From contig JAVBNT010000034.1 in the NCBI GenBank assembly GCA_031551355.1, positions 11,987 through 75,986 on the forward strand: 64,000 nt of DNA, in the 5' to 3' direction. The position numbers and the translations under genes were made by a program. The notes under the pieces were generated by a model. It was given only the letters and a program-made list of their open reading frames with translations. It was not told where the DNA came from and ran no database searches. Numbering within the stretch: the stretch's first letter is position 1; the number at the start of each line of letters is the position of its first letter. This DNA comes from Candidatus Xenobia bacterium. Lineage in GTDB: Bacteria > Vulcanimicrobiota > CADAWZ01. Below are positions 41,822-43,023 of this stretch, piece after piece.

Positions 41822-41930
41822 CCGCGCCCTCCGGGTCGGAGCAAATTACGATTTGCTTCCATGAAAATAAAATGCTGATACCCCCTTAGGTCGTAATAAA
41901 AAAAGACTGCATTTGTATAGCAATCTCGAA
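41822..41930. repeat. Diverged partial copy of the tRNA-fMet-associated 146-bp repeat unit
   Basis: gcgccctccgggtcggagcaaattacgatttgcttccatgaaaataaaatgctgata... aligns with units at 42656-42946. Confidence 0.7.
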
Positions 41931-42059
41931 TAAACCACGCAAGCCGTCACAAATGTGGCGGGTTTTATAATTTGGCTTTGGCTCAGAAGGCTGACAAAAC
42001 ATCGGACTATTGTCTTTAATCTGTCCAATTGTTTTATCACCTTTTCTGCTTATTTCAAG

Positions 42060-42464
42060 TTACCATATCGCCGCCTTACATGATGGGCATTCATTCCTAT
42101 GTACACAAACGATACCCCTACAAACGGGACAGCGATAAATTTTCTCTTGCTGCTGCAAAAAGAAGTTCATGCCATGCTCACGAATTGTTGCAATGTTTTC
42201 GAGCATACTCATGTGATATTTTGTCCGATACCGCATATCCAAATCCTTTAAGCGGCGACAGGGAGTATCGCAGGAGGCGCATGTTTGCCATCCATTTTTG
42301 GTTCGTTTCTCGCATACTACAATTTTGCAGTTTGAACAGGATTTCGGTTTGCTGTTATCAGATGCGCGGCATCCCAAACACTGATTGCGAGGGCGAATAT
42401 TGCCATAACATAAACGGCAATTCATCCCACACGGGGCAATTAGTTCTGCACTCATTTTAACCAT
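42060..42464 (-). CDS. Cysteine-rich small protein (multiple CxxC pairs; DUF3795-like zinc-binding)
   Basis: CGMNCRLCYG, CLGCRA, CSNCKIVVCEK, CASCDTPC, CPVCRGIVCVHRNECPSC; sole gene between repeat copy 1 and copies 2-3. Confidence 0.5.
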   Translation of the reverse strand: MVKMSAELIAPCGMNCRLCYGNIRPRNQCLGCRASDNSKPKSCSNCKIVVCEKRTKNGWQTCASCDTPCRRLKDLDMRYRTKYHMSMLENIATIREHGMNFFLQQQEKIYRCPVCRGIVCVHRNECPSCKAAIW

Positions 42465-42655
42465 GAAACTTACCCCCCTTTTCTACGCCTTATCCAGCCA
42501 TACTTGATCAAATTATAGCACAGAAGTCTAGCATAATCTATTTATCTGCATTGACATGTAAATAAGCAAGGAAGGGGGACAAGTGTTATTACGGCATTTC
42601 GGAATTTAAGCCCAAAAAGAAGTCTAAAACCCTCAGGTTCGACGATTTTGGACAG

Positions 42656-42946
42656 GGTTGCGGGAACAGGATTTGCACCTGCGCCCTCCGGGTCGAAGCA
42701 AATTACTGTTTGCTTCCCATGAATATAATAAAATGCTCATAACCCTGAGGTCTCAAAAAAAAGAGACCGCGTTTGTAACACAGTCTCTTGAGTGTAGAAT
42801 TGGTTGCGGGGACAGGATTTGCACCTGCGCCCTCCGGGTCGAAGCAAATTACTGTTTGCTTCCCATGAATATAATGAGATGCTCATAACCCGAAGGTCGC
42901 AAAAAAAAGAGACCGCGTTTGTAACACAGTCTCTTGAGTGTAGAAT
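42656..42946. repeat. Two tandem 146-bp units each beginning with a near copy of the 3'-terminal ~40 nt (acceptor 3' strand + T-arm) of the adjacent tRNA-fMet
   Basis: ggttgcggg(g/a)acaggatttgcacctgcgccctccgggtc recurs at 42657 and 42802 vs tRNA tggttgcggggacaggatttgaacctgcgacctccgggtt; units also contain inverted anticodon-arm-like gctcataaccc(t/c)gaggtc and A8 tract. Confidence 0.85.
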
Positions 42947-43023
42947 TGGTTGCGGGGACAGGATTTGAACCTGCGACCTCCGGGTTATGAGCCCGACGAG
43001 CTTCCTGACTGCTCCACCCCGCG
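42947..43023 (-). tRNA. tRNA-Met (initiator, anticodon CAU), CCA encoded
   Basis: Minus-strand read CGCGGGGTGGAGCAGTCAGGAAGCTCGTCGGGCTCATAACCCGGAGGTCGCAGGTTCAAATCCTGTCCCCGCAACCA; cloverleaf with 3 G-C pairs in anticodon stem and initiator-type 5' end typical of bacterial tRNA-fMet. Confidence 0.9.

Follow-up and report, generated by a model that had tools for sequence, protein, structure and literature searches.

Which process leaves a row of partial copies of a tRNA gene directly behind the intact gene? The question is raised by a 64,000-nt stretch of DNA from Candidatus Xenobia bacterium (assembly GCA_031551355.1, contig JAVBNT010000034.1; hereafter the window), in which the gene for the initiator tRNA-Met (tRNA-fMet) is followed by two tandem 146-bp units, each ending in a displaced copy of the tRNA 3' end, and further on by a third, diverged module (Table 1). 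On balance, we think it probable that these units are collapsed attachment (att) modules of an integrative element that targeted tRNA-fMet; they would lack the integrase, be stacked with the newest nearest the tRNA, and now be decaying.

The tandem array occupies positions 42656-42985, with a period of 146 and 2.3 copies (Tandem Repeats Finder, score 604). An initial annotation, made from the letters of the window alone, had described two perfect tandem units; the tandem arrangement and the period stand, but the units are 96% identical rather than perfect, differing at 6 positions in the repeat finder. Read on the tRNA strand, each unit consists of a spacer, a terminator, an inverted copy of part of the tRNA, an AT-rich linker, an 8-bp hairpin and a direct copy of the tRNA 3' part, in that order. 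The linker measures 18 nt from inverted copy to hairpin, a single G separates the hairpin from the direct copy, and the non-tRNA part of each unit amounts to 107 bp.

Table 1. Parts of the tRNA-fMet locus in the window, in the order of the tRNA strand, followed by the corresponding parts of loci from other lineages.
Feature	Position	Strand	Description
tRNA-fMet promoter	43042..43069	minus	TTGACA, 16 nt, TGnTATAAT; 12/12 matches
Initiator tRNA-fMet gene	42947..43023	minus	intact; anticodon CAT; ARAGORN; Rfam tRNA 59.7 bits
Terminator 1	42899..42935	minus	intrinsic; 13-pair stem and T8 run; begins after a 12-nt spacer from the tRNA end; opens proximal unit
Proximal inverted copy (antiAC)	42881..42901	minus	tRNA gene nt 32-52, TGCGACCTTCGGGTTATGAGC; 20/21 complementary
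Proximal hairpin	42841..42862	minus	8 bp, GAAGCAAA-cagtaa-TTTGCTTC; directly 5' of displaced tRNA copy
Proximal displaced direct copy	42801..42839	minus	tRNA gene nt 39-77; 2 mismatches
Terminator 2	42753..42789	minus	intrinsic; identical to terminator 1; opens distal unit
Distal inverted copy	42735..42755	minus	19/21 complementary to tRNA
Distal hairpin	42695..42716	minus	identical to proximal hairpin
Distal displaced direct copy	42656..42693	minus	tRNA gene nt 39-76; 3 mismatches over 38 nt
DUF3795-like gene	42060..42464	minus	134 aa, Cys-rich; TGnTATAAT-like -10 box and G-rich ribosome-binding site read in sequence
Third module	41838..41935	minus	~83% identical to tandem units; consists of a terminator-like hairpin, an inverted copy in degenerate form, an AT linker and a hairpin (41840-41859)
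Third displaced direct copy	41824..41836	minus	only tRNA gene nt 39-51 recognisable (13-14 nt, ACCCGGAGGGCGC); G at nt 48 kept
L018/L021 (low GC)			terminator, 20-nt inverted copy (nt 22-41), ~150 nt with hairpins, direct copy of nt 37-77 without mismatch, another terminator
L026 (high GC)			two units, period 157; each with 14-nt inverted copy (nt 29-42) and 9-bp hairpin
L027/L029			two units, period 164
L024			one decayed unit
L028			16-nt inverted copy, in agreement with the stem variant of its own genome

Beginning in the anticodon loop (gene nt 39) and reaching to the tRNA 3' end, the direct copies support an origin as att modules. The proximal copy carries two T->G changes, one at gene nt 48 and the other in the T loop at nt 56; on the tRNA strand these changes read GGTCGC->GGGCGC and GTTCAAAT->GTGCAAAT, and on the plus strand both are A->C. 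Both had been noticed in the initial annotation as characteristic of the copies, and both are present in the two tandem units; the third copy shows only one of them. Likewise, the ~40 nt of tRNA 3' end that had been ascribed to every copy are found in the two tandem units (~39 nt) but not in the third. The distal copy also differs at position 77 (CCC instead of CCA), and it ends at the tRNA 3' end (…GCAACC), where unique sequence begins.

The repeats are real by two measures. A unit-specific 26-mer occurs 3 times in the window versus 0 times in 100 shuffles, and the tRNA 3' 28-mer 3 times versus 0 in shuffles, which excludes chance. A Logan assembly made independently from the same organism (L001, SRR23967709) is identical over the third copy, the Cys-rich gene beside it and the first bases of the distal unit, before its contig breaks off inside the repeat. 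The repeat is thus present in independent data, and the 6 positions at which the units differ show that it is not a perfect duplication made by the assembler.

Decay grows with distance from the tRNA. Mismatches in the direct copies rise from 2 to 3-4 and end in a truncated copy, and the complementarity of the inverted copies falls from 20/21 through 19/21 to <14/21. A degenerate inverted copy at the left end of the segment that holds the DUF3795-like gene was rejected, its <14/21 being the background level. The third module lies where a diverged copy had been reported, its conserved 37-mer starting 857 bp past the distal unit (~830 in the initial annotation). A continuation of its tRNA copy as a decayed T arm is not significant (p~0.1; p~0.02 for the analogous third copy of locus L026, described below). 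At gene nt 48 the tRNA has T, but each of the three displaced copies has G.

Alignment of the units with the tRNA returned the direct copies and, in addition, an inverted 21-nt copy with 95% complementarity that had been overlooked. Placed immediately after the terminator, it spans the anticodon loop, the 3' strand of the anticodon stem, the variable loop and the start of the T stem. The two inverted copies score 37 and 32 versus a shuffle maximum of 23, and their mismatches fall at different positions, which indicates that the ancestor of the tandem units had a perfect 21-mer. This ancestral 21-mer carries the T48 state of the tRNA; the direct copies all carry G48. Folded as single-stranded DNA, inverted and direct copy together reach a z of -7.6. 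We know of no description of an inverted anticodon-loop copy as a feature of att regions in tRNA genes (tDNAs). The linker and hairpin were also compared with the 5' half of the tRNA (D arm), of which they might be a decayed form; sense-strand similarity was found only at the shuffle level.

Can such a structure arise without any integrase? Slippage or unequal crossing-over could have copied the 3' part of the tRNA together with its trailer, with decay setting in afterwards. The two derived substitutions common to the units, and their 96% identity, are what one duplication of a mutated copy would leave, and the GC content of the locus is not anomalous. Moreover, no recombinase is present nearby, as had been noted earlier for an integrase: none was found in the window, either by phmmer of all open reading frames (ORFs), queried with a tyrosine integrase and with a large serine recombinase, or by Pfam. 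But local duplication leaves unexplained the 21-nt inverted tRNA copy in each unit, the coincidence of the boundaries with the anticodon loop and with the precise tRNA 3' end, and the same ordered layout in four other lineages, one of them integrase-linked. Slippage may amplify a first unit; it cannot create one. We therefore consider a purely local origin unlikely.

The other lineages came to light when metagenome contigs were scanned for a tRNA-fMet 3' end behind which, after 40-70 nt, the fMet anticodon loop stands in reverse complement (an 11-nt pattern). Of the 13 loci found, 10 fall into four lineages that repeat the layout of the window: L018/L021; the related L026, L027/L029 and L024; L023/L025; and L028. 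One lineage is low-GC, one belongs to the Acidobacteria and two are high-GC. L019, L022 and L030 were set aside as chance matches or convergent tRNAs. The order of parts is common to the lineages: tRNA-fMet, terminator, reverse complement of the gene's own anticodon loop, hairpin, direct 3' copy. Throughout, the inverted copy comes after the T-run of the terminator, and a hairpin immediately precedes the direct copy on its 5' side. The inverted copy is longer than the 11 nt of the pattern in the window, L018, L026 and L028, and it tracks each genome's own tRNA sequence over 14-21 nt. In the array of L026, unit 1 ends in a perfect direct copy of nt 41-77 and unit 2 in a decayed copy of it. That a structured part such as the 107 bp of the window recurs in unrelated bacteria argues for a defined miniature att module over random decay of a prophage.

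Recurrent structure also raises the possibility of a structured RNA, either a gene or part of one, related to tRNA-fMet. Its 5' segment (…GGGUUAUGAGC…) would be complementary to the anticodon loop, its 3' domain would be tRNA-like (T arm, acceptor 3' strand and CCA), and it would have its own terminator; it could serve as an antisense sponge or sensor of the initiator tRNA, or belong to the pre-tRNA or to an integrase mRNA as a cis-acting element. The predicted RNA fold of the unit (-52.9 kcal/mol, z -4.6), the terminator at the end of each unit and the way in which the inverted copy follows each genome's tRNA speak for this proposal. So does a comparison of L026-type with L027-type units, where both hairpins keep their pairing through one compensatory G-C/C-G exchange each, although this is weak, with one event per helix. 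Against it, the unit has no recognisable internal promoter, and the inverted copy starts right past the T-run of the upstream terminator, so that it would normally not be transcribed with the tRNA. The tRNA-like part carries the T-loop substitution, the copies decay with distance, Rfam gives no match for the unit, and pairing between inverted and direct copy is not conserved, the two ranges overlapping by only 2 nt in L026. We regard an RNA function of the unit as decidedly improbable. In Rfam 15, no family other than tRNA matched at or near the gathering score in the window, L018 or L026. In L026:795-830 and L027:293-330, the hairpin of the inverted anticodon sequence (GCGGG-TTATGAG-CCCGC) overlaps an alternative hairpin (AGCCCG-CAGAAGT-CGGGCT) with a T-run, a mutually exclusive pair of antiterminator/terminator type that was not seen in the unit of the window.

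A direct link to an integrase is found in the Acidobacteria-type lineage. In L023/L025, only 23 nt separate the inverted copy from the end of a 472-aa tyrosine integrase (Pfam Phage_integrase, 2.5e-23). One member of the family of this integrase is named by NCBI as a protein of a Candidatus Sulfotelmatobacter (Acidobacteria) metagenome-assembled genome. Homologues of this integrase keep a fixed order: integrase stop, 23-24 nt, a GCTCATAACCC-like motif, ~45 nt, tRNA 3' end. The arrangement stands beside a full tRNA in L033 and beside a 12-nt tRNA remnant in L032. In L031 the family member is accompanied by a terminator, a degenerate inverted copy and, after a small hairpin, a bare fragment (nt 31-76) with no full tRNA, an arrangement that reads as attP-like. 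Because terminator and inverted copy travel with the integrase in these loci, both belong to the integrating element, as its tRNA-proximal arm.

Two soil metagenome loci appear to catch the integration itself. L020:12886-12990 and L024:2925-3160 are identical from the tRNA anticodon loop onward, but in L020 the 5' half of the tRNA is replaced by unrelated DNA (…TTCTCACA|GCTCATAACCC), an attR-type junction at the anticodon loop. Judged from the sequences, the pair resembles one tRNA-fMet integration site in its occupied and its empty state, and the junction indicates that real integration happens at this gene, upstream of a pre-existing unit. The proposal of the initial annotation that the locus is a decayed multi-insertion hot-spot is the best supported of its suggestions, given the copy boundaries, the decay gradient, the absence of an integrase and a layout linked elsewhere to a tyrosine integrase; it is incomplete in that the 107 non-tRNA bp form a structured module.

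How would a collapsed element of this kind produce the array? The element would recombine with the tRNA, either at the anticodon loop or 3' of it, and supply its own tRNA 3' part and terminator, so that the tRNA would stay functional; the previous 3' part would be pushed downstream as a displaced fragment. Each unit would then represent the two arms of the element without integrase or cargo between them: a tRNA-proximal arm made of spacer, terminator and inverted anticodon-loop copy, and a distal arm made of AT-rich linker and hairpin. Three such modules would have been stacked at the tRNA, the third being the most diverged, and an empty site would read as the tRNA joined straight to the flank CTGTCCAAAATCG. 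Copy number may have risen because site-specific insertion, catalysed in trans, happened repeatedly, or because a single insertion was followed by unequal crossing-over between the 39-nt direct repeats. An origin of this kind explains where the copies begin and end, why the tRNA is intact and why the terminator is repeated, as well as the decay gradient and the shared G48. It is also supported by the tRNA itself, which has a consensus promoter and its own terminator, the latter repeated in each unit. That an integrase made the copies of the window, and the position at which it would have crossed over, are our inferences from these features, as is any mobility of the modules today.

Several observations weigh against this origin. 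An empty site was not found in any relative, the closest homologue of a flanking protein being 71% identical and not syntenic, and for the host organism neither a cognate integrase nor an element of full length is known. The link to an integrase is drawn by analogy: the Acidobacteria loci that provide it share no sequence homology with the unit of the window. The two derived substitutions shared by the tandem copies fit a single duplication at least as well as two insertions. The DUF3795 segment lies at the junction past a displaced copy, whereas cargo would be expected between the two arms. The anticodon loop (CTCATA) is not conserved in the displaced copies, which argues against their being live anticodon-loop att sites. 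Finally, this origin does not explain the purpose of the inverted copy, which in L031 is degenerate (8/11) beside an intact integrase.

For this role we see three possibilities. The inverted copy may be a second, inverted binding site of the core type; it may, by analogy with CTX-phi, be a folding partner of the tRNA-like core in single-stranded DNA; or it may act at the RNA level in the 3' untranslated region of the integrase, for example by masking an antisense-tRNA sequence in the mRNA. Pairing between inverted and direct copy is not general, as the small overlap in L026 shows, and this overlap and the degenerate copy of L031 argue against a strict requirement for the inverted copy. A bolder extension of the collapsed-element reading would be an undescribed class of gene-less integrative elements: attP-only modules of ~150-250 bp, specific for tRNA-fMet, present in several phyla and spread or maintained in trans by tyrosine integrases, with the inverted copy as a working part of att. 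We offer this as a tentative idea and consider it rather doubtful.

Could the units instead be members of a dispersed, tRNA-derived repeat family, as the initial annotation had proposed with short interspersed elements in mind? The short non-coding unit, its inverted-repeat ends (GCGACCTCCGGGT … ACCCGGAGGGCGC) and its internal hairpin do give it a superficial likeness to MITEs, the miniature transposable elements with inverted repeats. Yet the supposed terminal repeats are tRNA sequence continuing in register, no target-site duplication was seen, and the three copies stand in one orientation directly behind the tRNA. None was found elsewhere in the window, and the unit-specific pattern GCAAANNNNAATTTGCTYCGACCCGGAGG gave 0 matches in collections of genome, metagenome and viral contigs, from which the source organism is absent. 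A dispersed family, for which no further copies were found in the window or the three collections, is in our judgement highly improbable.

Searches for relatives of the unit and of its flanks gave the following results. Phage and plasmid matches in blastn cover the tRNA only, and pattern scans of viral sequences returned full tRNAs or chance matches. The 626-aa flank protein had no relative in the genome contigs. For the HD-domain flank protein, the best relatives are 71%, 61% and 59% identical, are not syntenic and are missing the tRNA or the unit beside the gene. In the analysis the host was taken for a poorly sampled Clostridia lineage; the closest flank homologues that bear a source name come from Anaerocolumna, Herbinix and Clostridium. 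As a separate observation, the viral contig IMGVR_UViG_3300004628_000492 (L015:2600-2690) contains the 3' part of tRNA-fMet as a bare fragment (CTCATAACCCGG…CCAATTC), behind which stands a terminator; neither a full tRNA nor an inverted copy is present. The distance from the fragment to a large serine recombinase (653-2311) is ~340 bp, another, partial recombinase ORF is close by, and the four bases after CCA (ATTC) are the same in L015 and in the window.

The tRNA-fMet gene, whose presence the initial annotation had reported and which lies on the minus strand, is the only tRNA gene of the window; its sequence has a mismatch at C1:A72 and an anticodon stem with three G-C pairs. Rfam gave sub-threshold matches to the Staphylococcus small RNA S774 (gathering score 48) at 43004-43088 of the window (minus strand, 30.6 bits) and at L018:9201-9292 (34.1 bits), both spanning the promoter, leader and 5' part of tRNA-fMet. 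The 3' end of the S774 model matches the tRNA start (CGCGGG-UGGAGCAGU), so the match probably reflects tRNA-fMet sequence inside the model. Each unit also has a weak promoter-like site on the plus strand (TTGTAA-16-TAGAAT, 9/12; 42773-42800 and 42919-42946), of which the one adjoining the real tRNA would drive transcription antisense to tRNA-fMet.

The small Cys-rich gene had been placed between the first two copies; in fact it lies between the distal tandem unit and the third, starting ~190 nt past the distal displaced copy, with the third module coming after it. Its homologues are named DUF3795 by their sources, but its Pfam match to that family (19.5 bits) stays below the curated cut-off of 22.6. 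These homologues, at 70-81% identity, occur in unrelated contexts with no tRNA nearby: beside MarR (L010/L011), beside AraC (L012), and inside a phage tail module, where a 73% homologue (L013:5001-5405, Logan ERR12450764) sits moron-like in a prophage between the tail chaperone and tape-measure genes. Only the coding region can be aligned, and we accordingly rejected the idea of a conserved cassette that includes these flanks. From the sequences, the gene appears to move between contexts, not with the flanks of the window. It is possible that it was cargo of a mini-island bounded by the relics; the alternative is native DNA. The base composition of the segment and the locus is not anomalous and that of the gene is native-like; no sign of foreign origin was seen in it. 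In L027:578-733, as also in L029, a 51-codon Cys-rich, metallothionein-like ORF (MLAEKVKKCAHPNCSCTAMAGKYCSVQCE…) stands directly downstream of the unit array, a parallel to the small Cys-rich gene of the window that may be coincidence.

The wider neighbourhood is core chromosome and no island. It contains housekeeping or otherwise unremarkable genes, including those for HD-domain, Clp_N and FHA proteins, Rho, an acetyl-CoA carboxylase carboxyltransferase, an aminotransferase and radical SAM enzymes. Methionyl-tRNA synthetase (25369-27405) and the selenocysteine synthase SelA (46907-48277) lie 16 kb and 4 kb from the tRNA-fMet locus, respectively. Downstream of the locus on the minus strand, ORFs of 955 aa (34032-36899) and 971 aa (37190-40105) gave no Pfam match, nor did the small ORFs 40355-40642 and 40764-41021.

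Other candidates were dropped. On the plus strand, short ORFs span the units (42658-42888 and 42804-42968); these and a 52-codon frame from the ATG of the inverted copy are regarded as non-coding because they have no ribosome-binding site and because the period of 157 in L026 is not a multiple of 3. A diversity-generating retroelement was discarded, with only two substituted sites and no reverse transcriptase noticed. A type III toxin-antitoxin system (ToxIN-like, with ~35-nt repeats and a ToxN/CptN/TenpN gene) does not agree with a period of 146 with terminators inside and a DUF3795-like gene downstream. Cleavage of tRNA-fMet at 38/39 by VapC-type toxins was considered as the origin of the copy boundary and set aside as a coincidence with no supporting evidence.

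What, then, does the locus add? It is an ordinary kind of feature, an integration scar at a tRNA gene, in an unusual miniature and recurrent form; the unusual points are its size, with no gene at all, its recurrence in unrelated bacteria and its inverted anticodon-loop copy. The last, recurrent behind tRNA-fMet and integrase-adjacent in one lineage, is a concrete feature of att architecture. Gene-less intervals of 100-250 bp are expected to fall outside the length filters of island finders, so such modules would be missed. If the modules are live, site-specific integrases would have non-autonomous miniature parasites, as transposases have MITEs, and the modules could act as landing pads that re-create attB beside an essential gene. 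If they are no more than fossils, what remains is an ordinary integration scar, which serves chiefly as a warning to those who annotate tRNAs and repeats.

Displaced tRNA fragments are routine markers of integration, and the closest known counterpart is the tDNA island of the Islander type. The window shares with it an intact tRNA with co-oriented displaced fragments on the tRNA strand (nt 39-77, 39-76 and 39-51), fragments that extend from the anticodon loop to the gene 3' end, regeneration of the gene by the incoming DNA, and stacking at one tDNA. Islander requires an integrase in each island, and the displaced fragment of anticodon-centred att sites classically runs from the anticodon loop to the 3' end (PMC4383910); tRNA gene fragments that serve as attR sites are pervasive (PMC9897764). 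The intervals of the window, of 107 bp, 107 bp and ~1 kb, contain no integrase, and the last holds the DUF3795-like gene only. Known islands are kilobases long with an integrase each, whereas here there are 107 bp of arm sequence without a gene. Stacked islands at one tDNA and integrase-less cis-mobilizable elements (CIMEs) are both known (PMC4383910, PMC3146451). In the ssrA islands of Dehalococcoides, the gene disagrees in a conserved way with all direct repeats, to which the shared G48 of the window is a parallel (PMC3146451).

CIMEs also resemble the units, being flanked by att sites, devoid of genes for recombination or transfer, and retained in tandem beside the target gene. As far as we know, CIMEs in general carry genes and are kilobases in size; the modules here are 146 bp long and have no known cognate element. 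The integrase-less tandem islands that have been discussed as possible CIMEs carry genes, rdhA and others (PMC3146451). In the Streptococcus cases of integrative conjugative elements (ICEs) and integrative mobilizable elements, the subject of PMC5704250 and PMC7563491, a cognate ICE is known.

Two further systems are analogous in function or geometry. Integron cassette arrays also consist of small, integrase-less tandem units with an imperfect palindromic recombination site and possibly a single gene, but this is a functional analogy only: the window has no attC consensus, IntI or attI, and its repeats are tRNA-derived and anchored in the tRNA gene. CTX-phi and related elements that exploit Xer recombination (IMEX) reportedly integrate by a folded single-stranded attP of two inverted half-sites, through XerCD at dif (Val et al. 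2005). The likeness lies in inverted core copies ~45-100 nt apart that could fold into a stem like the duplex target, and in tandem arrays at the target; the difference is that XerCD acts at dif and not at a tRNA gene. Integration of single-stranded DNA at tRNA-fMet would be an analogy, and in L026 the copies that would have to pair barely overlap.

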